Shown here piece by piece: positions 3,681 to 44,400 of a stretch of DNA of 64,000 nt. Below the pieces are notes generated by a model. It worked only from the letters and a program-made list of their open reading frames with translations, ran no database searches and was not told where the DNA came from. Both the position numbers and the translations under genes were made by a program. How positions within the stretch are numbered: the stretch's first letter is position 1; each line of letters begins with the position of its first letter. This DNA is from a virus, in the IMG/VR virus record IMGVR_UViG_3300044213_000170, positions 81,401-145,400 of that record; one strand, given 5' to 3'.

Positions 3681-3709
3681 ATTGTAGCAATATTTCTATT
3701 TATTGTCAA
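3681..3709 (-). promoter_or_regulatory. sigma70-type promoter
   Basis: TTGACA-17-TACAAT. Confidence 0.75.
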
Positions 3710-3729
3710 CAATATTTTGTTGTTATTTT

Positions 3730-3821
3730 TGGTACCAGCGGAGGGGATCGAACCCTCTCAAGAACGCTAATCTGGCGCTAAAAGTCTTATAAGGACTCTC
3801 TGACTTCCAAGTCTCGCTGGT
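3730..3821 (-). tRNA. Non-canonical tRNA with UAU anticodon (reads AUA), long V-arm and minimal D-loop
   Basis: Loop CUUAUAA; 7-bp acceptor stem; T arm; CCA; D hairpin GACU-UGGA-AGUC; V-arm AGCGC/GCGUU. Confidence 0.8.
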
Positions 3822-3826
3822 AAAAC

Positions 3827-3903
<77 letters not shown>

Positions 3904-3912
3904 GATTTTTCT

Positions 3913-3941
3913 ATTATATGTTATTCTGCATTTATTGTCAA
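3913..3941 (-). promoter_or_regulatory. sigma70-type promoter at the head of the tRNA array
   Basis: TTGACA-17-TATAAT overlapping the MTase stop. Confidence 0.85.
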
Positions 3942-4859
3942 TGACAAATTATTTATTGCATCTATCTGCTGAAATCGTAAATCCATCTTAGTAAACATAG
4001 AAGTATCTTGTTCGATTAAAATGCATCGACGATTTTTGTTAGATGCAGCAATACCAGTGCTTCCACTGCCCGCAAAAGTATCCAACACCATATCACCAGG
4101 TTTGGATAACAATTCAATAAAGTACTCTAACACTTCAGTAGGCTTTTGTGTGGGATGAATTTTATCTTTGCCCAATCCGCCGCTATAGGTAATTGTGTTA
4201 GGAATAACACATTCGATCAATCCGTTTGATCTTTTGCGATCAGCCAACATCTTTTTACTATCAGCTAATGCCTTAGCAAACGCCTTGTCGATTGGTATAC
4301 CTTGAGAGATATATTTGTATACGATACTGCTGACTTTGTCTGCCGCCGCATAACGCTCAACCATAGATCCTTCAGTCGCATCTGCATTAAATGTTCTAGA
4401 GCCCTTGGGTTTAATGCCGAACAAAACGTATTCACAGCCACTTACTGGATTTACTCGACGATTGAATGGGACTGCTGCAGGTTTTTTCCAAGTCCATACA
4501 CGCTTAGACTCAAACCCAGCGTCGTTCATTGCGGTAATGAGATAACTTAAATATCTATCACTGATAAAAATTGCAAAACTTCCGCCCTTACGAAGTTTTG
4601 TAAACCACATCCTTGCCCAATCATTTAACTGTTGTTGGAATTCTTCATGACCAACATCGTCCCAGTCGTTATCAAATTCTTCACTGAAATTTTGATTATG
4701 GATTGTTGTTTTATTTTTGCCGGTTTCCTTGTCGAGCCAAATTGGATTTGCACCGTTTTTACTGATATTGTAAGGCGGATCTGTCAACAACAAATCAATC
4801 GAAGAATCGGGTATTTGATGTGCAATTGTCAAACAATCGCCGTTTAATCTAGTAATCAT
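3921..4859 (-). CDS. Site-specific DNA methyltransferase (N6-A/N4-C, beta class)
   Basis: DPPY motif near the N-terminus; HPTQKP; DTFAGSGSTG near the C-terminus; start moved to ATG 4859, 7 nt after TATAAT. Confidence 0.92.
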   Translation of the reverse strand: MITRLNGDCLTIAHQIPDSSIDLLLTDPPYNISKNGANPIWLDKETGKNKTTIHNQNFSEEFDNDWDDVGHEEFQQQLNDWARMWFTKLRKGGSFAIFISDRYLSYLITAMNDAGFESKRVWTWKKPAAVPFNRRVNPVSGCEYVLFGIKPKGSRTFNADATEGSMVERYAAADKVSSIVYKYISQGIPIDKAFAKALADSKKMLADRKRSNGLIECVIPNTITYSGGLGKDKIHPTQKPTEVLEYFIELLSKPGDMVLDTFAGSGSTGIAASNKNRRCILIEQDTSMFTKMDLRFQQIDAINNLSLTINAE

Positions 4860-4866
4860 AAATGTG

Positions 4867-4895
4867 ATTATACAATAATTTGGATTTATTGTCAA
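4867..4895 (-). promoter_or_regulatory. sigma70 promoter giving a likely leaderless MTase mRNA
   Basis: TTGACA-17-TATAAT-7nt-ATG. Confidence 0.8.
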
Positions 4896-6379
4896 TATAC
4901 TATCATAAACCCTGGTAAATTATTACCGGGCATATGACTAGGGGCGTGATATTGGAATTTAAACTTTAAATCGGTGAACGGTTTCGCTGATGCAACTACT
5001 CCCCCCTCATCAGTGATATCCAATCTCCCCAAATATGCAGAACTTTGATTGACTACATTGGTCATCATTTTTGCATATTCTTCTGCATCAGGTCCTTTGG
5101 TCACTGCATTTAACGTGCCAACACCCAATGCATAAGTTAATATGTCTGTTGCAGCTTTAACTGGATTAGCTTTGAAACTAGGATATCCTGCTTCTTTTTC
5201 GGCGGCCTTGTCTTTTTTCATACCCATATAGAACTGACCGTCGGCAGGTAATCCTACAGGTCTTCCCCAAGGACCAGCAACCATTATTGGATAGATTGCC
5301 TTTAAGAAATCTCCGTAGTCTGTTGCACTATTGCCTTTTACTAAGGATTTCACTAAATTTTGAAGTGACGTCCAGTTATCAAATTCTCCGCCAAGGATCT
5401 CTACGGCTTTTTTATATTCAGGAATCTTAACAAAATTTGCAGCTTTTACCAACTTATCGACGTTCTTGCCGCCGGCATTAGGATGATATGCTTTAAATAA
5501 AGCAAATAGCTTTTCTTGTGTACTATCTTTCTTAATGGTTTTTTCAAAGTTATCCATTAAATCACTAATACTTCTGAAGCTAGTGCCACTACCTGTTAAA
5601 CTTTTAACACTAAACTTTGTAGAACCAACAATTACATCAACTAAAGGAAAATTGCCCTCGGCCGGAAATTCAATTGATTGATTGCCTTTAGCAAACATTA
5701 TAGGTGCTAATATTTCTCCAAAGTCTACACTCAATTGATTTCTTGCTCTATCAGTCAAATGTCGATTTACTTCCGGATCTAATGTAGTGTTGCCGCCACT
5801 GGCTGCTACATTAACTAAACCCAATAATATTTGCATTAATTCGGGACGAGTTTTTGTTTTTGCTAAGACTGCTTGTTGCGTAGCAGATATTAATTCGTCT
5901 TTTGTATATATTTTACCGGCTAACCCTAATGTTGTAGGTGTAAACTCTTTAATGCTTACACTAACGCCAGTCTCATCTGTCTTTGCACCAGAGCTAGCAA
6001 CAACCAGTGTATAAATTACTGTATTAACTACATTGTCCGCAGTATCATTGCCTTGTGGAGGTTTATTTGCTGATATAGGAGTGGCGCTTGTTTCGAAACT
6101 TAGAATATTGTTTCTATATTTGCCGCTGATTGCAGCCTGTTCAGGTTCTATTGGCAGGGAATCTAATCCATGCGATTGAAAATATTGCTTAATCGCTTGT
6201 TTCTCTGCTCCGAATATACGAATATAAAATACAGGGCTAATATTTTTTTTCTCCACTGCAAATCTGTAGTCAGGCAGTTGTTCTTGCAAATTTTTTGCAA
6301 GAGCCTGTGTTTCTGCGCGGGTCGCATATCGCGCCGCTACATCTAATTCTTCAGATATTGTTATTTCGTTAAATCTCAT
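4892..6379 (-). CDS. Putative PD-(D/E)XK (restriction-like) endonuclease with a capsid-targeting-like N-terminus
   Basis: DFGEILAP...FPAEGNFPLVDVIV...FSVKS; adjacent to the MTase; starts MRFNEITISEE. Confidence 0.55.
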   Translation of the reverse strand: MRFNEITISEELDVAARYATRAETQALAKNLQEQLPDYRFAVEKKNISPVFYIRIFGAEKQAIKQYFQSHGLDSLPIEPEQAAISGKYRNNILSFETSATPISANKPPQGNDTADNVVNTVIYTLVVASSGAKTDETGVSVSIKEFTPTTLGLAGKIYTKDELISATQQAVLAKTKTRPELMQILLGLVNVAASGGNTTLDPEVNRHLTDRARNQLSVDFGEILAPIMFAKGNQSIEFPAEGNFPLVDVIVGSTKFSVKSLTGSGTSFRSISDLMDNFEKTIKKDSTQEKLFALFKAYHPNAGGKNVDKLVKAANFVKIPEYKKAVEILGGEFDNWTSLQNLVKSLVKGNSATDYGDFLKAIYPIMVAGPWGRPVGLPADGQFYMGMKKDKAAEKEAGYPSFKANPVKAATDILTYALGVGTLNAVTKGPDAEEYAKMMTNVVNQSSAYLGRLDITDEGGVVASAKPFTDLKFKFQYHAPSHMPGNNLPGFMIVY

Positions 6380-6512
6380 AATGAATGTCAGTTTAGTTTA
6401 TTTATTAAAAAACGTCAAGTTTGAAAATCTATTTCCCATATCAGTAGAAACCATAGGTTTTGTGCAATGCAACATAAATATATTAGTAGAAACACTGATA
6501 TAGGATAAGCAC

Positions 6513-6686
6513 ATGACAAAAATTATTAAAAAAATTAAAATGATTATTTCAAAAAGTCAGTCTCTTCAGTCTGACCTAGAACTTTATATTTCTAAACGTC
6601 GGCCAACTAACCAAGTAGATGTAGAACGTGCAATTACTGACTTTTATCGCCAAGCAGCAAGAGGCGGATATAATGTATTTCGTTGA
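6513..6686 (+). CDS. Small protein, DUF3563-like
   Basis: 57 aa, ...QSDLELYISKRRPTNQVDVERAITDF...; AGGA SD; ATAAATA upstream. Confidence 0.55.
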   Translation: MTKIIKKIKMIISKSQSLQSDLELYISKRRPTNQVDVERAITDFYRQAARGGYNVFR

Positions 6687-6859
6687 AATCTAATGGCATT
6701 TTATTTTTCTATCTTGGAAGATTAATCAGAAAAACAAGGACTATAACCATGAAAAATATTAAAGAATTCATTAATGAACTCGTTTATTTTGTACAGCTTT
6801 TTAAAAATAATTGGAAGCTAAAATTTACTGATATTTTACGGAACGAGTAAAGCATTAAC

Positions 6860-6881
6860 AAAAAGGGGCAATGCCCCTTTT
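6860..6881. terminator. Bidirectional intrinsic terminator
   Basis: aaaaaggggc-aat-gcccctttt between convergent genes. Confidence 0.75.
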
Positions 6882-7632
6882 ATTTTCTTTCTATGTCTTC
6901 TTCTATACAACTATCCCCGTATTGTATCTCTACTATTTTACAGGGCCAATCGTATGGGTTAATCAATTGATGCCAATGACCGACGGGTATATATACGCTC
7001 ATGTGTTGTTCTAGTTCTTTTGAGGGCAATGTATAACCATTATTCATCATGCTGTTTAATAGACATTTGCCCTCACTAACTAACCAAAATTCATTACGCT
7101 TAAAGTGTCGTTGCATACTTAGACTGCTGTACGGGTCAATAGTCAATTCCTTTACTTTACATCCATCTACTTCGTGTAATACACGATAGTATCCCCATTG
7201 ACGTTCTGTTTTTGGTGCTTTCCATTCTTGCAATATCCAGCTACTACTATTGGCTTTATTTTCGCCGCCGACGCCGAACATGAAAAGCACACCTTTACAA
7301 ATCATCTCAGGGATATTCAGTGCGGTTCGATCTCCCCCATTTGCAAAAATAATTTCATCGTTAGGATATTGGGTTTGCATTGCCCGAATAAACTCACAAG
7401 CACTGCCGTCGGCATCATCAAAGCCATATGCCGCATCAACTACGTCGATCGAACTAACGATTAGTTGTCGTTCATACAGTGGCATAAAGCTGCGGCCTTT
7501 CTTACGCTCAAGCCACTGATCGCTATTAACGCCTACTATAAGTTTATCACCAAGTGCTTTTGCCGCTTTAAAGTAAGCAATATGTCCGCTGTGTAGCGGA
7601 TCGAATCCGCCTGTTGTAAGTACTATTTTCAT
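6880..7632 (-). CDS. Cytidylyltransferase (HxGH) fused to a type II mannose-6-phosphate-isomerase-like cupin
   Basis: GGFDPLHSGH; FANGGDR; RQWGYY...SLSMQRHFKRNEFW...IVEIQYG. Confidence 0.88.
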   Translation of the reverse strand: MKIVLTTGGFDPLHSGHIAYFKAAKALGDKLIVGVNSDQWLERKKGRSFMPLYERQLIVSSIDVVDAAYGFDDADGSACEFIRAMQTQYPNDEIIFANGGDRTALNIPEMICKGVLFMFGVGGENKANSSSWILQEWKAPKTERQWGYYRVLHEVDGCKVKELTIDPYSSLSMQRHFKRNEFWLVSEGKCLLNSMMNNGYTLPSKELEQHMSVYIPVGHWHQLINPYDWPCKIVEIQYGDSCIEEDIERK

Positions 7633-10753: not shown

Positions 10754-12136
10754 TTATTTGGTTAAACCTGCCAAACGTTTAAGTATGCTGAATGATTCTT
10801 CGCTTTCGTGCACTGCTGCACTCATTCTGCTCAAATCCCTATCGTTGGTGCTGGCGCCGTAATTGCTTCTGGGATCCTGGACTGTCATTTTAGGAATTTC
10901 CATTTGAGCAGATAATATTACATTTTCTGCACGATCCACTTCTTCTTTACTCTCGAAATAATATACACCATCTTCAACTCGATATTCGAATCCCCATTCA
11001 TCCAATAGTTCATTTAATTTTTCATCAACGGTATCATCTGTTTCAAATTCAGGATGTTGTGTTGTATAGGGTTCAGGATTGTCTATTTTACTCAATGGGC
11101 TACTATTTTCTTCGAGGCTGTTGGCCCAAGCTTCGAATTCTTCGCCTACTTTGTCGCTATGTGATTTGTATGCGCGATGCACGATAGGCAATGCATCCAA
11201 TAACCGATCATCAAATACACGTTTGACAAATCGTTCTTTTAATGCATCCATATCAAATTCTTCTTCATCTAATACTTCAGGGGTCCACAATGCACGATAT
11301 TGTTCATATCCTCGTTGACCTCTGACTGTAAATAAATCTCTATGTAGTTTACCATAATGATCTATTGCAGCTTCAACCATCACTTGAGTTTCTACATCGT
11401 CAAATTTGCGACCTCGCATATTGCGTACAAAATGCTTTAGCGAATTCATTTCACTAATCAATTTGCTAATATGTTTGCCGAACTCGTCATGAATGGCGCC
11501 ACCGTTTTTAACGTGACGGGCATATGCGCGGGCCCCATTGACTGTGGTGCCTTCGGGTAGTCTAAAACGTTCTCCAAGGGAATTCTCGACGTAGAAACAT
11601 TCGATATTACGACTTCTTGCGCCGGGCTTTGTTTCGTCCACAATGGGTTTGCTATGTCTTGCTATGATTCGAACGTTTTCTAATTTTTGATAACTGCTGC
11701 GACTAGTACCATAAAATTTGTTTTCATTTAAGTTTACATCGTCTGAAGAGACAACCTCTGCATCTTTATTGGCGTGCTTTAAGTCACGCAAATTTAGCCC
11801 GCTTTTTGCAATATCTCTGATATCAAAACTATCAAAACTGTTTTGCATCGAGAAACGGCGTAGACCACGTAAAAACTGGTACCAATTGTTTTTAACTTCT
11901 TCGGGCATTTCTGCGTCGATTTCTTTGTCAAAATAAACTTTTAAAGTTTGATTGTCGACCATGCTAATGGTTATGTTTCCGTAATTTTTCCCGTTATCCA
12001 CATAGTCGAAGTTAAAGAATCTTGCCTTTGTAGGATCTACAGTACTTTTGGCATTTTCGTCGCCGATGTTGATATTCGAAAATCTATTGCGAATTTTATC
12101 AAATAAGTTTTCGGCCGTTTTTTCAATTGCTATCAT
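10754..12136 (-). CDS. Hypothetical late protein (probably virion/head associated)
   Basis: 460 aa; TATAAATA 7 nt upstream; acidic C-terminus ending LKRLAGLTK. Confidence 0.75.
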   Translation of the reverse strand: MIAIEKTAENLFDKIRNRFSNINIGDENAKSTVDPTKARFFNFDYVDNGKNYGNITISMVDNQTLKVYFDKEIDAEMPEEVKNNWYQFLRGLRRFSMQNSFDSFDIRDIAKSGLNLRDLKHANKDAEVVSSDDVNLNENKFYGTSRSSYQKLENVRIIARHSKPIVDETKPGARSRNIECFYVENSLGERFRLPEGTTVNGARAYARHVKNGGAIHDEFGKHISKLISEMNSLKHFVRNMRGRKFDDVETQVMVEAAIDHYGKLHRDLFTVRGQRGYEQYRALWTPEVLDEEEFDMDALKERFVKRVFDDRLLDALPIVHRAYKSHSDKVGEEFEAWANSLEENSSPLSKIDNPEPYTTQHPEFETDDTVDEKLNELLDEWGFEYRVEDGVYYFESKEEVDRAENVILSAQMEIPKMTVQDPRSNYGASTNDRDLSRMSAAVHESEESFSILKRLAGLTK

Positions 12137-14331: not shown

Positions 14332-14533
14332 GCTTTTCCCCGGTAAGATATGGTCTTGCAAACCAGAGTTTAAACCAGGCCTCTGTGCCTGGTTTAATTT
14401 TATGCTCTCGTTGTAATTTGGCTTTTTCTGTTCCAGTATAACTTATGTTATCCGGTTGGCCGATTTTATATTCTTGAATATTTGGGCGATTAGTAATGCC
14501 GGCTAGCAATTTAAGTTGTTGTAAATCATCCAT
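14324..14533 (-). CDS. Hypothetical protein
   Basis: 69 aa; LKLLAGI; IKPGTEAWFKLWF. Confidence 0.75.
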   Translation of the reverse strand: MDDLQQLKLLAGITNRPNIQEYKIGQPDNISYTGTEKAKLQREHKIKPGTEAWFKLWFARPYLTGEKPI

Positions 14534-14919
14534 TATACACCGTATTTGTTCTTTTTCTTTTTAGATACAGGACTGACTTTATTTACATTGCTTAATTCTT
14601 CGCTGCGATTAGAACTTAATCGCTTGACTTTGCCTGCGCCTACCATTTTAGCTGCCGCATTAACAATTTCTAATTCTTCGTCGGTATACGCACTCAATAA
14701 CGGATCTCCCGCGATCGCTCCTGTTGCAGCTGTAGGGAAATCCGGTGCACCGGCCATGGCCAATCCAAAACGATATCCGGCATATGGATTGCCATTTGAT
14801 TTATTTTGACTAATTCCAGGGACGCTCATTGCCCCTTTGATGGCCGCCACTTGTTGACTATCTAACTTTTCAAAATTAGCAGGAATATCTCCTTCAGTTA
14901 AAATTTCCGAAATCTTCAT
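14533..14919 (-). CDS. Putative internal head protein
   Basis: MKISEILTE leader resembling the T4 capsid-targeting sequence. Confidence 0.6.
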   Translation of the reverse strand: MKISEILTEGDIPANFEKLDSQQVAAIKGAMSVPGISQNKSNGNPYAGYRFGLAMAGAPDFPTAATGAIAGDPLLSAYTDEELEIVNAAAKMVGAGKVKRLSSNRSEELSNVNKVSPVSKKKKNKYGV

Positions 14920-15347
14920 TTTTTCTTTCCTTCCGCCAGACCCTGCTGTGCTTGTTCAGCGGATCGAATTCGTTGCAATAAATGTTGCATTGGTGATTCT
15001 AAACTACGAGCACGACGTTCTGCATCAGTTAAATTCTGATCACGGTCTGCGTATTGCCAATTGCTACCACCTAACGATTCATATTCTTTTTTCATATTAT
15101 CGTATTCGGCTTTTAGTTTTGGTAATGATGCAATTAAATTCGAAATTTCTTTTTCTCTAGCTAACGCACGACCTCGGTCATCCCTTGCAGCGACACGTTC
15201 TAATCCACGACTTCGCTTATCAAATTTTGCTTTTGCTGCAGCACGTTGTTCTGCGCTAGGTGCAAATGCAGCGCCCATGCCTGCTTGTGCTTGTTGCATG
15301 CTTGCTTTTTTTCGATAATTGCCCAGGGTGACTTCGTTTATTTTCAT
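14916..15347 (-). CDS. Putative internal head protein
   Basis: MKINE leader; QQGLAEG motif. Confidence 0.6.
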   Translation of the reverse strand: MKINEVTLGNYRKKASMQQAQAGMGAAFAPSAEQRAAAKAKFDKRSRGLERVAARDDRGRALAREKEISNLIASLPKLKAEYDNMKKEYESLGGSNWQYADRDQNLTDAERRARSLESPMQHLLQRIRSAEQAQQGLAEGKKK

Positions 15348-17084: not shown

Positions 17085-17675
17085 TTATTTGACCGGTGAA
17101 GGTATCTTGTTTTGTTTACTACCAACAGGGCTTAATTTTCCTTGTGGCATATCTGATGTTGTTTTTGCAGCCTGTGTTTTACCGCCTGCTGCTGTTGGCA
17201 TATGGTATGCACGAGCATTCATTAATTCTTTCATTAAGTTTTCTACTCGTTCCTCGCCCACTAATCCTTTGGAATCTTCTGCTTTTAATTCTGGTGTGTC
17301 TAATACAACATCACCATCCGGATTGCTAACTTCTTTGCCATCCATGATGGCTTCGATTGGGTGATCTGCAGGAGTGACGCGAATAGCAGATGGAGCGCAA
17401 CAGCCACATTCTGCAATTGCATTACGAATTTGATCATCGTTTGCTGGATAACAAACAGTAATGTCGAACATATTAATTTCGACTGGCCCCATATTCGGAA
17501 ACATTGGGCTTTCTTGAATTGGTAAACGTTTTGTATCAGTGATGGTTTCTACTTTATACACTCCCAATGATTGTTTAATCTTGGATTTCATTTCGTTAGT
17601 CATTTCACAGGCCAAACGAACTTTAAAAGTATAAGTTTTTTTGCTTTCCATCAAGTAAGATTTAAAAGACTTCAT
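17085..17675 (-). CDS. Putative head-associated protein
   Basis: MKSFKSYLMES leader; ATAAATA upstream. Confidence 0.65.
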   Translation of the reverse strand: MKSFKSYLMESKKTYTFKVRLACEMTNEMKSKIKQSLGVYKVETITDTKRLPIQESPMFPNMGPVEINMFDITVCYPANDDQIRNAIAECGCCAPSAIRVTPADHPIEAIMDGKEVSNPDGDVVLDTPELKAEDSKGLVGEERVENLMKELMNARAYHMPTAAGGKTQAAKTTSDMPQGKLSPVGSKQNKIPSPVK

Positions 17676-19033: not shown

Positions 19034-21310
19034 TTAAGCCGAGTAATCCCCGGACCAATCTGAAGCTGTAGTTGTGGCATCAGCTCCGCCACCTGCTACA
19101 ACTGTATCATTATTTACTGCATTTGGAATTGCAGAATCCTGATTATTGCTGACTACTGCGGTGTCGGGATTGATTCCCGAATTACTGAACACGGTGCTGG
19201 TCCAATTGGTTGCTGTAGGTGCTTGCACTTGAGTAAAATTTCCCGATGCATCTTTGAAATATTGAGAACCGTCTTGATATGTTATTGTGCCAGATCCGTC
19301 ATTTTCGTAAACAGAACTCACAACGTTCTGATTGGGATTGTTTGCATTAAATCCGCCGGTGCCGAACGTAGATCCAACGAAATTGCTGATACTGCCAGTT
19401 ACACTATTAAATCCTTGGCTTATGCTATTCGCAAAACCATTAGCAATAGGTTGTAAAGTATTATTAATTAATTTACCAGTAACTAATCCTGCAGCACCGC
19501 TTATACCTGCTGCCACAGTTTTACCGATTGCACTTTGACCTAAAAATCCGCCAGTCAATCCTTGATATAAAGATTGTCCTGCCAATGCTCCGCCTACTAA
19601 ACCTGCTGTTCCTGTTAAACTGTTGACTATCTGTGCAGATGTGCCGCCTACTGTTGTAGTAATACCAGTAGTGGGATTTGTGTAGTAGCTTACTCCTCCA
19701 GCGAATGTTTGGCCAGTTGACGAAATCAAAGCACCTGTATTTTGCGGCACTGCTGGGTTTTGCAGTACATTTGGATTATATGATGATCCAGGGATCAACC
19801 CAACCTGATTACCATTTGCATCTTTTGTTACTACTGTTCCATCATTGTATGTTTGCTGCGATACAACATTTCCTTGAGGGTCCGTAATTGTTTGTGTGCT
19901 TTTTAAATTATCTGTCGGGCTATTGGGATTATATGTACCGTTAGCTGTAGTAAAGACCGATGTAGTGCTAATTTGTTTTCCGGTAGGATCAAGTACTGCT
20001 ACAGTCTGTTGATTTGTAATTGGTTGTCCTGCACTATTAACATAAACATATGAACCGCCGGACCCTTGGACCGTGTATACCGGTGCCTGCCCCTGAGACT
20101 GGAAAACACCAGTAACTACTCCTTGTACCCATTGATTTGATACCTGTTGCCCTGTTTGTAACAACCCGCCAGCTGCTGCGCCTGCTATTCCACTTATTAC
20201 ATTTGTTGGGGATGGTAACATACCGAAGTTTGTGGTCGGTACACTAACAGAATTGCTGAATGCACTATTGATTGCTTGACTAACTGCACTAATTCCGATA
20301 CTACCCAATGTTTGTGCTGCTAAATTTTGAAAATTTGTGCCTTGTAAATTCTTTATTAAATTCGCAATATTATTTGCGGTCGATAATAAATTAGATCCGC
20401 TTGAGCCGTCAGGTCTTGCCAAGTCCTTAGTACCACTATTTAATGCACCGAGTAAACCGTTGTCATTATAAATGTTAGTTACGCTGGTGCTAATTGGACT
20501 TTGTACATCATCATAATGTATAGTAGCAAAGCCCTCGACATCCAATGGATTTATATAACCTGTTTTGTACTTGACTGTTTCAAACGTAATAGTCATGGTA
20601 TTCTCTAATAGACCAGTACCGTCGACATTACTATGCTCGCCGTGACGCCAATCTGTTATGATAGGATTTATTAATTCGTATTCAGTAAATCTTTTATTAT
20701 GTAAACTAAAAAGTTGTATACTTTTAAAAAACGGTATATTACTACCATTTCTAGTAGTGTACCCCCATTTCGAAGTAGGTCTTCCAGCATAAATTCCTGT
20801 CTGCTGTTTAAAACCCGAATAAGGATTTGTCAGTGTAGCAGTTGAAGAAAATAAACTATTATCTGTAGAATAATCGCTATCTCGGTAATAATATGTATAG
20901 TAATCGTTCCACAGGCCTGTAACGGTATCGGCGGCATCATCATGAAAAGTTATACTAACTGGATCGTATGATATGTGTGTTTGTATAACATTTTTCCTGT
21001 TATAAGAATTCAAAGTTTTTGTGTCGATTTTAAATTTTGGTAATTCAACTCTTTTAGCTAGCATGCCTGCTTCTAACTGTTGTAAGCTAGTTTGACTAGA
21101 TACTGTTGATCCTGATATTGTGTTAGATAATGTAGATAAAAACCCCGCCGGTAAATCGGAATTTATTTGCAGTCTGACGTAATATAAAAATGCCTGTTTA
21201 GGCGATAACTTGTAATTATCAGCTAAAAAAAGTTTTGTAGCGTGTTGATAATCGTGTGTCCACTGACCTTGTGTAAGTGGTTTTAAATCGGCATTATACA
21301 GAGTAGACAT
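19034..21310 (-). CDS. Tail-tube-fold baseplate/tube initiator-like protein with a long Gly/Ser/Thr-rich extension
   Basis: KRVELPK...YDPVSITFHDD...YELINPII...MTITFE; adjacent to the tail tube gene. Confidence 0.65.
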   Translation of the reverse strand: MSTLYNADLKPLTQGQWTHDYQHATKLFLADNYKLSPKQAFLYYVRLQINSDLPAGFLSTLSNTISGSTVSSQTSLQQLEAGMLAKRVELPKFKIDTKTLNSYNRKNVIQTHISYDPVSITFHDDAADTVTGLWNDYYTYYYRDSDYSTDNSLFSSTATLTNPYSGFKQQTGIYAGRPTSKWGYTTRNGSNIPFFKSIQLFSLHNKRFTEYELINPIITDWRHGEHSNVDGTGLLENTMTITFETVKYKTGYINPLDVEGFATIHYDDVQSPISTSVTNIYNDNGLLGALNSGTKDLARPDGSSGSNLLSTANNIANLIKNLQGTNFQNLAAQTLGSIGISAVSQAINSAFSNSVSVPTTNFGMLPSPTNVISGIAGAAAGGLLQTGQQVSNQWVQGVVTGVFQSQGQAPVYTVQGSGGSYVYVNSAGQPITNQQTVAVLDPTGKQISTTSVFTTANGTYNPNSPTDNLKSTQTITDPQGNVVSQQTYNDGTVVTKDANGNQVGLIPGSSYNPNVLQNPAVPQNTGALISSTGQTFAGGVSYYTNPTTGITTTVGGTSAQIVNSLTGTAGLVGGALAGQSLYQGLTGGFLGQSAIGKTVAAGISGAAGLVTGKLINNTLQPIANGFANSISQGFNSVTGSISNFVGSTFGTGGFNANNPNQNVVSSVYENDGSGTITYQDGSQYFKDASGNFTQVQAPTATNWTSTVFSNSGINPDTAVVSNNQDSAIPNAVNNDTVVAGGGADATTTASDWSGDYSA

Positions 21311-40213: not shown

Positions 40214-41261
40214 GATAAAAATCCATATGTTTAAGTTTTTGTAACCAAGTATCAAATTGTTTATGCACTACTTCGTCACTGAATTTACTCTCTGCCCACT
40301 CTCTGCAAGCACGAGGATTTATATTTTTTATGTTGTTTCCTGCTTCTAGAAAAGTTTTAAAGTCTTTGCATCGATAACCGGTGACACCTTGTTGTACAGT
40401 ATCAACAAATCCGCCCCAATCTGTGGTTATCACTGGCGTCCCCGATAGCATAGCTTCTACTACAATATTCCCAAACGGTTCTATATAATGTGTTGCGGCA
40501 ATCAAACAACTTGCTTTTTTTAACAGTTCTTTTCTTTGTTCAACGTTAACATAACCAACACATTCTACGTGAGCAGGAATGCTTGCATACCCCAAGTCTT
40601 GAAGACTGCCGGGTCCTGCAATTACTAATTTTTTACCTAATTTTTCTGTAATTTGAATTGCCAAATGTATGCCTTTATCTTGGCTTATTCTGCCCAAATA
40701 AACAAAATAATCCTCTTTGTCATCACAGAATTCAAACTCATTCACCGTGAACGCATTAGGAATCACTGCGTCCCACCAACTGGGTTGCAACATTTGTTGG
40801 TAAAGTCCATTGTAGTAATGCATTTGGCTATAACTAGTAAATCCCTTGTATGGTGCAAACACACACTCTAATAGATAACCTATACTAGGTTCCACTATTT
40901 TTAAATCCATGTGCTCTTTTACTGCTGCTTGATGACTTATTCCATAAAAGCAAAGAACCATATCACCGGGTTGTTTAACTTTATGTAATCGATCACTGAC
41001 CCTATTGCAAAACAGTTGAGTATATGCAGGGTGTTCTTTCATCATTGCACCTTCATGAGGTGGCGGTAATTCTTTGTTAGTTATTGCCGAAAAGTGCTCA
41101 CAATCCACTTCGCTACTTTCATGACCGTAATGAATCATATTATAGTCATATTGCTTCATATTTTCAATGAATTTGCTTACTGCGATATTAAATGGCTCCA
41201 TCCTATATTTAGGATTAGTTATGCCGTAAGGGTTTGCTAATATATGTAAAGTCTGTGTCAT
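40206..41261 (-). CDS. Glycosyltransferase family 4
   Basis: LGRI..DKG; EPFGNIVVEAMLSGTPVI. Confidence 0.92.
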   Translation of the reverse strand: MTQTLHILANPYGITNPKYRMEPFNIAVSKFIENMKQYDYNMIHYGHESSEVDCEHFSAITNKELPPPHEGAMMKEHPAYTQLFCNRVSDRLHKVKQPGDMVLCFYGISHQAAVKEHMDLKIVEPSIGYLLECVFAPYKGFTSYSQMHYYNGLYQQMLQPSWWDAVIPNAFTVNEFEFCDDKEDYFVYLGRISQDKGIHLAIQITEKLGKKLVIAGPGSLQDLGYASIPAHVECVGYVNVEQRKELLKKASCLIAATHYIEPFGNIVVEAMLSGTPVITTDWGGFVDTVQQGVTGYRCKDFKTFLEAGNNIKNINPRACREWAESKFSDEVVHKQFDTWLQKLKHMDFYHV

Positions 41262-41345
41262 ACTATTTGATTATAGTACTATTTACTCTATAATTCAATT
41301 GGATTTTTGAATTTCTTGTTACCTATATGTTCGAATTTTTAATCA

Positions 41346-41379
41346 AAAAAAAGTAACGCTACCGAAGTAGCGTTACTTA
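41346..41379 (-). terminator. Intrinsic terminator after the collagen gene
   Basis: AAGTAACGCTAC-TTCG-GTAGCGTTACTTTTTTT. Confidence 0.9.
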
Positions 41380-41416
41380 GAGCTTATGTTATGTTAGATA
41401 ACAATCCAACTTTGGA

Positions 41417-44400
41417 TTATAGTCTACCAATAACAACCTCGATGATGCCTGTTGTGCCGTTAAAGTCCTCTAGGGCTTTACCGATTACAGTACCAATCTT
41501 TGGATTAGCTTCAGCACGGGCCATTCCGTTACCAGCTGCAACCATCATATCACCTTTGCGTACTGTGCCTGTTACAAAACATGGTACACGACCGTGTAAT
41601 GCAACATCAGCTACGTACTCTGCATCCAACTCACTGTTCATTAAGTAAGATGGATTTGTAGTGATAACCCCTGCTACAGTTGTTACCATATCTTCAGCCG
41701 CTAATGTAACTTCATTAGTACCTCCGAAGCAAACTACTGTACCTGGTTGATAACGAGCATCTGCTACATAACGCTCTGCCAAGTCAGCGTAACGAGCGTT
41801 AACTGCTGTAACGTTTAATACGTTTGTACTTGGATTATAGTAGAAGCTACTAGCACCGTAAGCAGTTTGGTTAGAACCAGTCGCGCTTACAAATACTGGA
41901 TAGTAGTTTGCGTTTGTAGTTGTTGCTGTTGCGTTGATAATAGTGCTTGGACCTGCTGGACCTTGTGCACCAGTTGCACCTGTTGGACCTTGTGGACCTT
42001 GTGGACCTGTTGGACCTTGTGCACCTGTTGCACCTGTTGCACCTGTTGCACCTGTTGCACCTGTCGGACCTTGTGGACCTTGTGGACCAGTTGAACCTTG
42101 TGCACCTGTTGCACCTGTTGGACCTTGTGGACCTTGTGGACCAGTTGGACCTTGTGCACCTGTTGCACCTGTTGCACCTGTCGGACCTTGTGGACCTTGT
42201 GGACCAGTTGAACCTTGTGCACCTGTTGCACCTGTTGGACCTTGTGGACCTTGTGGACCAGTTGAACCTTGTGCACCTGTTGCACCTGTTGCACCTGTTG
42301 GACCTTGCGGACCTTGTGGACCAGTTGAACCTTGTGCACCTGTTGCACCTGTTGGACCTTGTGGACCTTGTGGACCAGTTGAACCTTGTGCACCTGTTGG
42401 ACCTGTTGCACCTGTTGCACCTGTTGGACCTTGTGGACCTTGTGGACCAGTTGAACCTTGTGCACCAGTTGCACCTGTTGGACCTTGTGGACCTTGTGGA
42501 CCTTGTGGACCAGTTGCACCAGTTGAACCAGTTGCACCAGTTGCACCAGTTAGACCTTGTGGACCTTGTGGACCTTGTGGACCAGTTGAACCTTGTGCAC
42601 CAGTTGCACCTGTTGGACCTTGTGGACCTTGTGGACCTTGTGGACCTGTTGCACCTTGTGCACCTGTTGGACCTGTGCTACCTGTTGCACCCTGTGGACC
42701 TTGTGGACCTTGTGGACCTTGTGGACCTGTTGCACCTGTTGCACCTGTTGGGCCTTGTAGACCTGTTGCGCCAGTTGCACCCTGTGGACCTTGTGGACCT
42801 TGTGGTCCTTGTGGTCCTGTTGCACCAATTGGACCTTGCGGACCTGTACTACCTGTGTTACCAGTTGGACCCTGTGGACCTTGTGGACCTTGTGGACCAG
42901 TTGAACCTTGTGCACCTGTTGGACCTTGTGGACCTTGTGGACCAGTTGAACCTTGTGCACCTTGTGGACCTTGTGGACCTTGTGGACCTGTGCTACCAGT
43001 TGCACCTGTAGGACCTTGTGGACCTTGTGGACCAGTTGAACCTTGTGCACCTGTTGCACCTGTTGCACCTGTTGGACCTTGTGGACCTTGTGGACCAGTT
43101 GAACCTTGTGCACCTGTTGCACCTGTTGGACCTTGTGGTCCTTGTGGACCTTGTGGACCTGTGCTACCTGTTGCACCTTGTGCACCTGTTGGACCTTGTG
43201 GACCTTGTGGACCAGTTGAACCTTGTGCACCTGTTGGACCTTGTGGACCTGTACTACCTGTTGGACCTTGTGGTCCTTGTGGACCTTGTGGACCTGTGCT
43301 ACCTGTTGCACCTTGTGCACCTGTTGGACCTTGTGGACCTTGTGGACCAGTTGCACCTGTATTACCAGTTATACCCTGTGGGCCTTGTGGACCTTGTGGA
43401 CCTTGTGGACCTTGTGGACCAGTTGAACCTGTATTACCAGTTATACCCTGTGGGCCCTGTGGACCTTGTGGACCTTGTGGACCTTGTGGACCTGTTGCAC
43501 CTTGTGCACCTGTTGGACCTTGTGGACCTGTTGCGCCAGTTGGACCTTGTGGACCTTGTGGACCTTGTGGACCAGTTGAACCTTGTGCACCTGTTGGACC
43601 TTGTGGACCTTGCGGACCAGTTGAACCTGTATTACCAGTTATACCCTGTGGGCCTTGTGGACCTTGTGGACCTTGTGGACCTTGTGGACCAGTTGCACCT
43701 GTATTACCAGTTATACCCTGTGGGCCCTGTGGACCTTGTGGACCTTGTGGACCTTGTGGACCTGTTGCACCTTGTGCACCTGTTGGACCTTGTGGACCTG
43801 TTGCGCCAGTTGGACCTTGTGGACCTTGTGGACCTTGTGGACCTGTTGCACCTTGTGCACCTGTTGGACCTTGTGGACCTGTTGCGCCAGTTGGACCTTG
43901 TGGACCTTGTGGACCTTGTGGACCAGTTGAACCTTGTGCACCTGTTGGACCTTGTGGACCTTGCGGACCAGTTGAACCTTGTGGACCTTGTGGACCTTGT
44001 GGACCAGTTGAACCTTGTGCACCTGTTGGACCTTGTGGTCCTTGTGGACCTTGTGGACCAGTTGAACCTTGTGCACCTGTTGGACCTTGTGGACCTTGTG
44101 GACCTTGTGGACCTGTGCTACCTGTTGCACCTTGTGCACCTGTTGGACCTTGTGGACCTTGTGGACCAGTTGAACCTTGTGCACCAGTTGCACCTGTTGG
44201 ACCTTGTGGACCTTGTGGACCAGTTGAACCTTGTGCACCTGTTGGACCTTGTGGACCTTGTGGACCAGTTGAACCTTGTGCACCTGTTGGACCTTGTGGG
44301 CCAGTTGAACCTTGTGCACCTGTTGGACCTTGTGGACCTTGTGGACCTGTTGCGCCAGTTGGACCTTGTGGACCTTGTGGACCAGTTGCACCTGTATTAC

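Follow-up and report, generated by a model that had tools for sequence, protein, structure and literature searches.

Does the pairing of an unnamed nuclease-like gene with a DNA methyltransferase (MTase) gene in an uncultured phage represent a restriction-modification system owned by the phage, and might the nuclease travel inside the virus particle? The question was raised by a 64,000 nt stretch (the window; positions 81,401 to 145,400 of IMGVR_UViG_3300044213_000170), which is part of a 145 kb fragment, 42% complete, of a T4-like jumbo phage from a freshwater lake. The first-pass annotation described a beta-class amino-MTase abutted by a 495 aa ORF, here called c0, with a PD-(D/E)XK-like pattern, a leader resembling that of T4 internal proteins, a late-type element and an overlapping promoter upstream, and a consensus sigma-70 promoter for the MTase embedded in the c0 stop. 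All of these sequence features were found where they had been placed (Table 1), and the observation is therefore confirmed. Two details required correction. The MTase most likely starts at an ATG 7 nt after the -10 hexamer, rather than at the TTG at position 4895 given in the ORF list, and S257 of the SVK motif is not conserved in the wider family, so that the conserved pattern is E...D...xK and not D...SxK.

Table 1. Positions of features in the window
Position	Strand	Feature	Details
4892..6379	-	c0, 495 aa nuclease-like ORF	Starts MRFNEITISEE; member of an unnamed virus-only family
6350..6379	-	N-terminal leader, residues 1-10 (MRFNEITISE)	I-x-E at residues 8-10 (I8-S9-E10); candidate capsid-targeting or propeptide segment
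5480..5977	-	Conserved core of c0, residues 135-300	Shared with distant relatives; holds K144, P148, D219-F-G-E222, P239, N243, D248, K259 and G263
5714-5716	-	E222	In DFGE
5636-5638	-	D248	In NFPLVD
5603-5605	-	K259	In SVK
6399..6406	-	T4-type late-promoter-like motif AATAAATA	ATAAATA at 6399-6405 with the preceding A; 19 nt before the c0 ATG
6390..6418	-	Weak sigma-70-like site TTGACG-17-TAAACT	9/12; overlaps the late motif
4867..4895	-	Consensus sigma-70 promoter TTGACA-17-TATAAT for the MTase	12/12; c0 stop TGA (4894-4892) inside the -35 hexamer
3921..4859	-	Beta-class amino DNA MTase, 312 aa from the ATG at 4859	DPPY near residue 38, FAGSG near residue 264; inferred CATG-specific and probably N6-adenine
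17085-17675		196 aa ORF with a clearer T4-type leader	Aromatic residues at positions 4 and 7, [IL]-x-E at 8-10

To determine what c0 might be, we first sought relatives. A search returned 275, all annotated as hypothetical, and the family was found only in viral contigs. Two scans of one genome per prokaryote species, with the family alignment and with an alignment of its short forms, found no cellular relative, though each scan rested on two peptide patterns and could miss distant relatives. A tblastn search of 50,697 phage records returned one weak match, in phage C48C1 (29% over 39% of the query), and a DNA search found only the tRNA-Met gene. No nuclease family was matched by profile searches with Pfam, using the protein, 10 distant relatives and all 48 members of the broader alignment at E values up to 10, or with PHROGs and NCBIfam, and a profile search of PDB sequences was also negative. 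A search for short stand-alone relatives of the core found only three fragments. However, K144, P148, G221, E222, D248, K259 and G263 are invariant in 48 of 48 aligned sequences down to 18% identity, and the same residues are kept in 10 further divergent forms. With position 257 variable, only two acidic residues and one lysine remain, and E222 could stand in for the missing acidic residue. By protein-language-model features, the nearest named clusters to residues 135-300 in a protein atlas are all Type II restriction enzymes (SmaI 0.90 and 0.86, HinP1I 0.85, ThaI 0.84, HaeIII 0.82 and MspI 0.82), but scores below 0.9 are only leads, the atlas model of the protein is mediocre (pLDDT 0.61) and its best structural match to a restriction enzyme is TM 0.32/0.26. 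A nuclease fold is inferred from sequence.

The adjacent MTase matches PF01555 (5.4e-36) and phrog_67 (4.5e-56), and its DPPY motif precedes FAGSG, as in the beta class. Matches to adenine-specific families were weak and lay below their cut-offs. Co-occurrence of the pair across relatives had been named beforehand as a test, and the two genes do travel together. Of 70 informative c0 loci, 41 have the orthologous MTase (58-71% identical) directly downstream and three more have it adjacent and divergent, leaving 26 that lack an adjacent MTase. Conversely, 45 of 56 MTase-orthologue loci have a c0 relative next to them, even where c0 has fallen to 24-33% identity, while 11 lack it. The pair sits in many different flanking contexts, with upstream and downstream neighbours changing many times.

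The strongest result concerns CATG. Of the 16 four-base palindromes, only CATG is strongly depleted in these loci (0.36 and 0.29 of expectation). The CATG count is zero in 17 of 26 MTase-less loci, but in 0 of 44 MTase-bearing loci. Four of four long records with c0 but no MTase contain no CATG at all (0/174, 0/144, 0/148 and 0/123, observed over expected), over 43-88 kb. CATG is the only absent 4-mer in three of them, and the other also lacks AGCT. MTase-bearing records retain CATG (74/404 and 213/424). In record G005, where the MTase sits elsewhere in the record, no 4-mer is absent and CATG is not among the three most depleted palindromes. Relative G010, which is 97% complete and has a TerL 77% identical, carries neither gene (a positive control was found at 1.6e-100) and has normal CATG (59/72) in its 21.6 kb locus. 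CATG is also normal in 67 of 80 relatives sampled via TerL.

There are exceptions to this pattern. Nine of the 26 MTase-less loci keep CATG. Seven of these fall in one clade with G005, while two (L036 and L037) are unexplained. The MTase was not found in five of the exceptions' very short records, which shows nothing. We considered whether the exceptions carry a dead nuclease, but all keep K144, D219, E222, D248 and K259, and this was rejected. A further locus, L261, holds a paralogue with CATG present and no MTase in 32 kb. On the c0 tree, the MTase state and the CATG-zero state each change at least six times, always in step or uninformatively, but only four well-supported independent contrasts exist, of which two or three go the expected way and none the other way (sign test p 0.25). 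MTase-bearing loci are also CATG-depleted, which a host CATG enzyme could explain as well. The evidence that both proteins act on CATG is indirect.

Are the two genes expressed at different times? The MTase promoter is conserved: of 20 distinct c0-MTase junctions, 16 keep a -35/-10 pair with a 17 nt spacer and a start codon 4-7 nt after the -10, and 14 of these match at 11/12 or better. The MTase mRNA is probably leaderless. The total of nine promoter-like sites in 3700-6900 is not above that in shuffled sequences (mean 10.7), and only the 12/12 quality and the conservation of the sites carry weight. A late motif of the T4 type is present within 42 nt upstream of c0 in 28 of 30 distinct relatives. 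In this genome the motif precedes 22 of 192 ORFs, including tail sheath and virion-protein genes, against about two expected. In the window it lies further from the ATG than the 4-7 nt seen in 24 of the 29 regions that carry it, and the overlapping sigma-70-like site may add early or middle transcription. An early MTase and a late nuclease are supported by these conserved elements, with the timing itself inferred.

The leader of c0 is conserved at the amino acid level. The strict motif occurs in 23 of 78 c0 ORFs, but only 2 of 1143 other ORFs, and an [LI]xE ending at residues 5-12 occurs in 94 of 119 family members against 77 of 760 control ORFs. Position 2 keeps K or R through AAA, AGA, CGA and CGT codons, and position 6 keeps a hydrophobic residue through seven different codons, so selection is on the peptide. 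A hypervariable linker follows. The same leader sits on five other ORFs of this genome, and it recurs on unrelated ORFs lying in units headed by late motifs. One leader-bearing protein belongs to DUF6267, but it has no similarity to c0 beyond the leader, and paralogy was rejected. The 196 aa ORF and its homologues in relatives combine their clearer leader with a late motif and a 'virion structural protein' PHROG match. However, the c0 leader in the window has N4 and T7, with hydrophobic residues at 3 and 6, and so lacks the aromatic residues at positions 4 and 7 that target T4 IPIII (PMC9026906), though distant relatives of c0 have this feature. Peptidase_S77, a gp21-type prohead protease, and Gp23, a gp23-type capsid protein, are encoded by two of five long relatives, but neither was found in the other three or in the 42% complete 145 kb fragment itself. 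Support for capsid targeting is only indirect.

The interpretation offered by the first-pass annotation, that the MTase protects progeny DNA while the nuclease is loaded late and delivered at infection to cut host or competitor DNA, is partly supported: the restriction-modification part gained strong comparative support, the packaging part only indirect support. Our preferred explanation, held tentatively, is that the genes form a phage-borne restriction-modification pair directed at CATG. In this view, host RNA polymerase transcribes the MTase from its own promoter and the enzyme marks CATG in phage DNA, probably at N6 of the adenine. The 495 aa protein would be the cognate endonuclease, with E222 on a helix, D248 at the end of one strand and K259 on the next strand, in a PD-(D/E)XK-like arrangement. 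It would be transcribed late together with virion genes, probably taken into the prohead by its leader and trimmed there by a gp21-type protease, and would then enter the next host with the already methylated DNA and cut unmethylated CATG sites of host or competing DNA. Relatives that lost the MTase would spare themselves by having no CATG. Our analysis establishes the linkage of the genes, the invariant residues, the conserved promoter elements and leader, and the CATG pattern; the fold, enzymatic cleavage and its site, the methylated base, the timing of expression, and packaging, trimming and injection are all inferred.

The best surviving alternative, though we consider it unlikely, is that the CATG pair is real but the nuclease is not packaged, and instead is made late and works inside the infected cell, for example to destroy remaining host DNA or superinfecting phage DNA. 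The linkage and CATG evidence fits equally well. Short relatives (400-420 aa) have no leader and no late motif, three of the eight showed a sigma-70-like promoter, and in six of the eight the stop overlaps the MTase start, so the family does not need packaging. The N-terminal motif, which in the window departs from the T4 rules, could then serve folding, stability or translation of a leaderless mRNA, as many late genes here seem leaderless and their first codons could be constrained. Against this, 0 of 9 other ORFs whose late motif ends 5-7 nt before the ATG carry the leader motif, the codon variation described above indicates selection on the peptide, the leader is followed by a hypervariable linker and recurs on unrelated ORFs in units headed by late motifs, and a nuclease that arrives only late does little for host takeover.

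Less likely still, c0 encodes packaged cargo or a virion protein with another function, such as DNA binding or anti-defence, and CATG methylation or avoidance answers CATG-cutting enzymes of the hosts. Site avoidance and orphan MTases are common phage answers to host restriction, and the lack of any nuclease family match, the depletion of CATG in MTase-bearing loci and the 11 MTase loci without c0 are consistent with this. However, as CATG is normal in G010 and in most TerL-sampled relatives, the pressure follows c0 and not the phage group as a whole. Complete absence of CATG over such lengths suggests that a single site is fatal, the E, D and K residues are invariant and the atlas neighbours are restriction enzymes, and the MTase stays beside c0 while c0 diverges. 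That the adjacency is merely inherited gene order and the shared motifs chance is very unlikely, for although the loci come from related phages, which inflates raw counts, and the contrast test is underpowered, the pair keeps together while its neighbours change, the MTase and CATG-zero states change in step or uninformatively, and the promoter inside the c0 stop codon is conserved.

A bolder possibility, again tentative, is that an entire unnamed, virus-only superfamily of restriction endonucleases is loaded into the heads of aquatic T4-like jumbo phages by a capsid-targeting leader and injected with the genome to shred host DNA at CATG within moments of infection, the phage genome being spared by an early leaderless CATG methylase or by complete removal of CATG. 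Restriction enzymes are normally seen as bacterial defence, but here a phage lineage seems to own one and use it against the cell. Three genome states make the idea directly testable: nuclease with methylase and CATG present, nuclease without methylase and CATG absent, and neither gene with CATG normal. If the nuclease is packaged, T4-type capsid targeting would deliver offensive enzymes in nature, which would extend the known injected cargo of phages and explain extreme site avoidance in uncultured phage genomes. It would also name a large family of proteins now 'hypothetical' in freshwater and marine viromes, and might add a new CATG-specific enzyme fold to the restriction-enzyme catalogue. 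Within the literature and terms searched, no paper was found on a natural phage-packaged restriction enzyme, on DUF6267 or on CATG-free T4-like phages. Cyanophage virion proteomics (PMC3037559, Table S8), in a study that names T4-GC 15 and 190, could bear on which neighbouring enzyme-like proteins are in virions.

Among known systems, the bacterial enzymes NlaIII, FatI and relatives act on CATG, the target inferred here together with adenine-type methylation, and are cellular defence systems. The Type IIP PD-(D/E)XK endonucleases SmaI (PF17411), ThaI (PF15514), HinP1I (PF11463), MspI (PF09208) and HaeIII (PF09556) are the nearest clusters in the atlas, and the E...D...xK spacing of c0 fits an alpha-beta-beta-beta core. 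MspI and HinP1I also lack the second acidic residue in the xK motif and use a helix glutamate. However, no HMM hit to any of these families was found, c0 is two to three times longer, and its family was found only in viral contigs.

Chloroviruses such as PBCV-1 encode an adjacent endonuclease and MTase, the arrangement inferred here. Their endonuclease is in the particle, the MTase is not, and host DNA degradation starts within 5 min (PMC7019647). One PBCV-1 pair, CviAII, also acts on CATG with N6-adenine methylation. That virus infects a eukaryotic alga and its endonucleases are small, while here the host is a bacterium and the protein is 495 aa, with extra N- and C-terminal domains, a T4-type leader as the proposed packaging route and no demonstrated homology to chlorovirus enzymes. 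If c0 is a packaged endonuclease, it would be the bacterial-virus counterpart of that strategy, and a natural version of the T4 engineered to carry EcoRI by a capsid-targeting fusion. With T4 internal proteins IPI-III and Alt, whose capsid targeting sequence is cut by prohead protease gp21, c0 shares a short N-terminal leader, an L/I-x-E site at residues 8-10, putative late expression and unrelated cargo bearing the same leader, but differs in having F3 and I6 in place of aromatic residues at 4 and 7, and in the absence of a protease gene from the 145 kb fragment. The natural cargo here would be a restriction enzyme, which in T4 is known only as an engineered capsid-targeting fusion that carried EcoRI into the heads (PMC9026906).

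The 145 400 bp IMG/VR virus record, of which the window is the last 64 kb, has 39% G+C and is rated 42% complete by CheckV. It encodes UvsX-, UvsY- and gp32-like proteins, a large terminase whose nearest cultured relatives are jumbo phages (PA5oct 52%, Phosso, Atu_ph07 and Rak2-like phages), tail sheath and other virion genes, and 17 tRNAs. The runs that hold the stretch are freshwater metagenomes. The 495 aa ORF and the adjacent DNA methyltransferase (MTase) gene are on the same strand, and every motif and coordinate in the first-pass annotation proved correct. However, the MTase most likely starts at the ATG at 4859, and the serine of the SVK motif, which had been read as part of a PD-(D/E)XK-like pattern, is not conserved in the wider family. 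The positions of these genes and of other features are listed in the Table.

Table. Positions of the features considered
Feature	Sequence	Position	Strand	Remarks
495 aa ORF (c0)	window	4892-6379	-	
DNA methyltransferase	window	3921-4859	-	
Second TTGACA-17-TATAAT promoter	window	3913-3941	-	12/12 match; overlaps the MTase stop codon and points into the tRNA array
tRNA-Met	window	3827-3903		in the tRNA array
196 aa ORF	window	17085-17675	-	starts MKSFKSYLME
Five further ORFs starting M-K-hydrophobic-x-E-[IV]	window; 145 kb record	14533-14919 and 14916-15347 (window); 41261-44005 (record)	- (window)	128, 143, 70, 454 and 141 aa
Examples of ORFs with a late motif ending 5-7 nt before the ATG	window	10754-12136 and 19034-21310		nine such ORFs in the record
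494 aa paralogue	L261	11564-13057		
c0-like gene and the genes that follow it	L083 (phage C48C1)	5644-9975		

The 495 aa protein has no match in Pfam, PHROGs or NCBIfam or among PDB sequences, but it is not an orphan. A word-indexed search returned 275 relatives, and none of the 120 listed carries a Pfam domain or a name other than 'hypothetical protein'. An exhaustive search of cluster representatives returned 107 relatives, and 78 loci were found in IMG/VR. Two scans of one genome per prokaryote species, each resting on two peptide patterns and able to miss distant relatives, found none, and among 50 697 phage records only phage C48C1 (Kyanoviridae) has a weak relative. In an alignment of 48 sequences reaching down to 18% identity, K144, P148, G221, E222, D248, K259 and G263 are invariant, and 10 further divergent forms found next to MTase orthologues keep them too. 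The order of the conserved segments fits the core of PD-(D/E)XK nucleases, with a helix-like segment containing DFGE, a short strand ending in FP, a strand ending in D248, a tight turn and a strand with xK259, and the helix glutamate would replace the missing second acid. This is a reading of the sequence and not a computed fold. When residues 135-300 were compared with a protein atlas, the nearest named clusters were all Type II restriction enzymes (SmaI 0.90 and 0.86, HinP1I 0.85, ThaI 0.84, HaeIII 0.82 and MspI 0.82), though such scores are only leads, and the structural part of the same search gave a TM of only 0.32/0.26 to a ThaI cluster.

To assess linkage with the METHYLTRANSFERASE, we examined the 70 of 78 loci that had at least 1 kb downstream of the ORF or showed the MTase. 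The orthologous MTase (58-71% identical) is immediately downstream on the same strand in 41, adjacent and divergent in 3, and absent in 26, where the neighbours that were scanned are not DNA methyltransferases. Starting instead from the MTase, 45 of 56 orthologue loci have a relative of the ORF beside it, including forms that are only 24-33% identical. Of the 11 that have none, one has only 390 bp upstream and another is in G005, a relative in which the ORF lies elsewhere in the record. As the genes flanking the pair differ widely between loci, the pair behaves as a unit. In many relatives (loci L026-L034, L066-L071 and others), an HNH endonuclease gene and a ClpP-like protease gene lie directly upstream of the pair.

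Of the 16 four-base palindromes, only CATG is strongly depleted in these loci, at 0.36 of a Markov expectation in those that carry the MTase and 0.29 in the others. CATG is entirely absent from 17 of 26 MTase-less loci, with 11-40 sites expected in each, but from 0 of 44 MTase-bearing loci. Four whole MTase-less records hold 0 CATG where 174, 144, 148 and 123 are expected. CATG is the only missing 4-mer in three of them, while one, the 53 kb relative G007 (loci L171-L173), also completely lacks AGCT (0 of 119 expected), which hints at a second site-specific pressure. MTase-bearing records keep CATG, with 74 observed against 404 expected in the relative G001 and 213 against 424 in the window's own genome. 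G005, whose MTase (72% identical) lies elsewhere in its record, shows no CATG depletion, as no 4-mer is absent and CATG is not among its three lowest palindromes. Nine MTase-less loci keep CATG. Seven of these form one clade with G005 and share an F268M change, so an unlinked MTase is likely there, but the remaining two, L036 and L037, are unexplained. CATG is also present in L261, which carries a paralogue with the long leader form, a late motif and the N-terminal domain of one c0 subfamily, but with a different central part (DYAGE ... SSKGTGGG). The HMM search missed this paralogue, and no MTase was found in its 32 kb record.

To determine whether CATG loss is a trait of the whole phage group, we sampled 80 loci by terminase similarity (70-88% identical). 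CATG is normal in 67, intermediate in 6, low in 3 and absent in 4, and two of the latter lie in records already known to carry the ORF. The only near-complete relative, G010 (338.5 kb, 97% complete), has neither the ORF nor the MTase, while both searches found the positive control G001 (1.6e-100 and 2.8e-132), and the G010 locus contains 59 CATG against 72 expected. There are thus three states: both genes with CATG present, the ORF alone with CATG absent, and neither gene with CATG normal. On a tree of the ORF family, the MTase state and the CATG-zero state each change at least six times. However, only four well-supported independent contrasts exist, of which two or three go the expected way and none goes against, leaving the sign test at p 0.25. 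The inference therefore rests on the size of the effect within each lineage and not on a formal test.

The MTase promoter is a 12/12 match to TTGACA-17-TATAAT, with the stop codon of the ORF inside the -35 hexamer. Of 20 distinct junctions, 16 keep a -35/-10 pair with a 17 nt spacer and a start codon 4-7 nt behind the -10, and 14 of these match at 11/12 or better. Three of the other four keep only a -10 element at the same distance from the start codon, and one has a longer leader. Such spacing implies a leaderless mRNA, though this is inferred from position alone. The first 12 bases of the second perfect promoter (TTGACAATAAAT) are the same as those of the MTase promoter.

Upstream of the ORF, 28 of 30 distinct relatives have NATAAATA or CTAAATA within 42 nt. 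When the window is counted as well, 29 regions have the motif, and in 24 of these it ends 4-7 nt before the ATG. The late promoter is TATAAATA in T4 and NATAAATA in cyanophage S-PM2 (PMC2984593). In the window's genome, the motif precedes 22 of 192 ORFs where about 2 are expected, among them the sheath gene and two genes with 'virion structural protein' PHROG matches. As it ends only 5-7 nt before the ATG in nine ORFs, many late mRNAs of this phage may be leaderless, like the MTase mRNA. In the window itself, the motif upstream of the 495 aa ORF (AATAAATA) lies 19 nt from the ATG and overlaps a 9/12 sigma-70-like site. Overlapping early and late promoters may give middle-type expression in RB49 and S-PM2 (PMC2984593), and the window's ORF may therefore not be purely late.

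The first six residues of the protein follow M-[KR]-hydrophobic-x-E-hydrophobic, and the next stretch of the family alignment is hypervariable in length and rich in P, Q and A. The strict motif lies within the first 20 residues of 23 of 78 family ORFs and of 2 of the 1143 other ORFs in the same loci, and occurs once in 214 299 internal positions. Other family members carry related forms such as MRxLLNILE or MNLMELF, and an [LI]-x-E ending at residues 5-12 is present in 94 of 119 full-length members against 77 of 760 control ORFs. Codons vary while the residue class is kept, with K/R encoded by AAA, AGA, CGA and CGT and the hydrophobic sixth residue by seven codons. None of nine other ORFs whose late motif ends 5-7 nt before the ATG has the leader motif, which argues against a mere translation constraint. 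In the 145 kb fragment, 6 of 192 ORFs start with the motif. The five besides the 495 aa ORF all lie in units headed by late motifs, and the 454 aa product of one is a DUF6267 protein (Pfam 6e-109), the homologue of which lacks this N-terminal extension in the two cyanophage relatives that were read (DSL-LC02 and S-PM2). The relative G006 has ten such ORFs.

The capsid targeting sequence (CTS) of T4 is the first 10 residues of IPIII, in which residues 4 and 7 matter for targeting and residues 8 and 10 for processing, and gp21 cuts after L/I-x-E (PMC9026906). The window protein has I8 and E10, but N4 and T7. Aromatic residues at 4 and 7 with [ILV]-x-E at 8-10 are found in distant family members, in two neighbours of the C48C1 relative and in the window's 196 aa ORF. 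In C48C1, the only relative from a cultured collection, the c0-like gene is followed by a DUF6267 gene, a small gene and a cytidyltransferase gene, and the DUF6267 gene and the small gene start with F at positions 4 and 7 and [IV]-x-E at 8-10. The 196 aa ORF, which has L-x-E at 8-10, a late motif upstream and a weak 'virion structural protein' PHROG match (1.8e-8), is a candidate internal head protein, and its homologues in G001 and G006 have the same kind of start. Two of five long relatives encode a Peptidase_S77 prohead protease and a Gp23 capsid protein with several [LI]-x-E sites in its N-terminus, while neither gene was found in the window's own fragment. In cyanophages, the T4-GC190 protein is an experimentally determined virion protein (PMC3037559), and it is the product of the gene annotated 'cytidyltransferase' beside the DUF6267 gene of S-PM2. 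Enzyme-like proteins of this neighbourhood do therefore reach virions.

A second architecture was found in eight MTase loci, which carry 400-440 aa relatives that keep the invariant residues but have no leader and no late motif. Three of them (L090, L103 and L110) showed a sigma-70-like promoter, and in six of the eight the stop overlaps the MTase start. The family therefore also exists as an ordinary operon, at least sometimes early, and the long, late, leader-bearing form looks like a derived or alternative use. This supports a functional tie to the MTase, but also shows that packaging is not needed for the basic function of the family.

The interpretation in the first-pass annotation, a restriction-modification pair whose nuclease may be packaged and injected, is thus partly supported. 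The linkage, the invariant residues, the conserved promoter elements and leader, and the CATG pattern were observed directly, whereas the nuclease fold and cleavage, methylation of CATG, the timing of expression, and packaging and processing are inferred from sequence. We consider it probable that the ORF encodes the CATG-directed nuclease cognate to the MTase and, given that, slightly more likely than not that the long form is packaged. The full statement is therefore tentative, and at best about as likely as not. A late but unpackaged nuclease is less likely, and packaged cargo of another function, with the CATG pressure coming from hosts, is less likely still. Mere shared gene order is very unlikely.

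In the literature searched, we found no natural phage example of a packaged restriction enzyme, no paper on this protein family and none on CATG-free T4-like phages. The closest working parallel is the chlorovirus system, where the endonucleases are in the virion, the MTases are not, and host DNA breaks down within minutes (PMC7019647). For delivery, the closest parallel is the T4 CTS, which carried EcoRI into heads only as an engineered fusion (PMC9026906).
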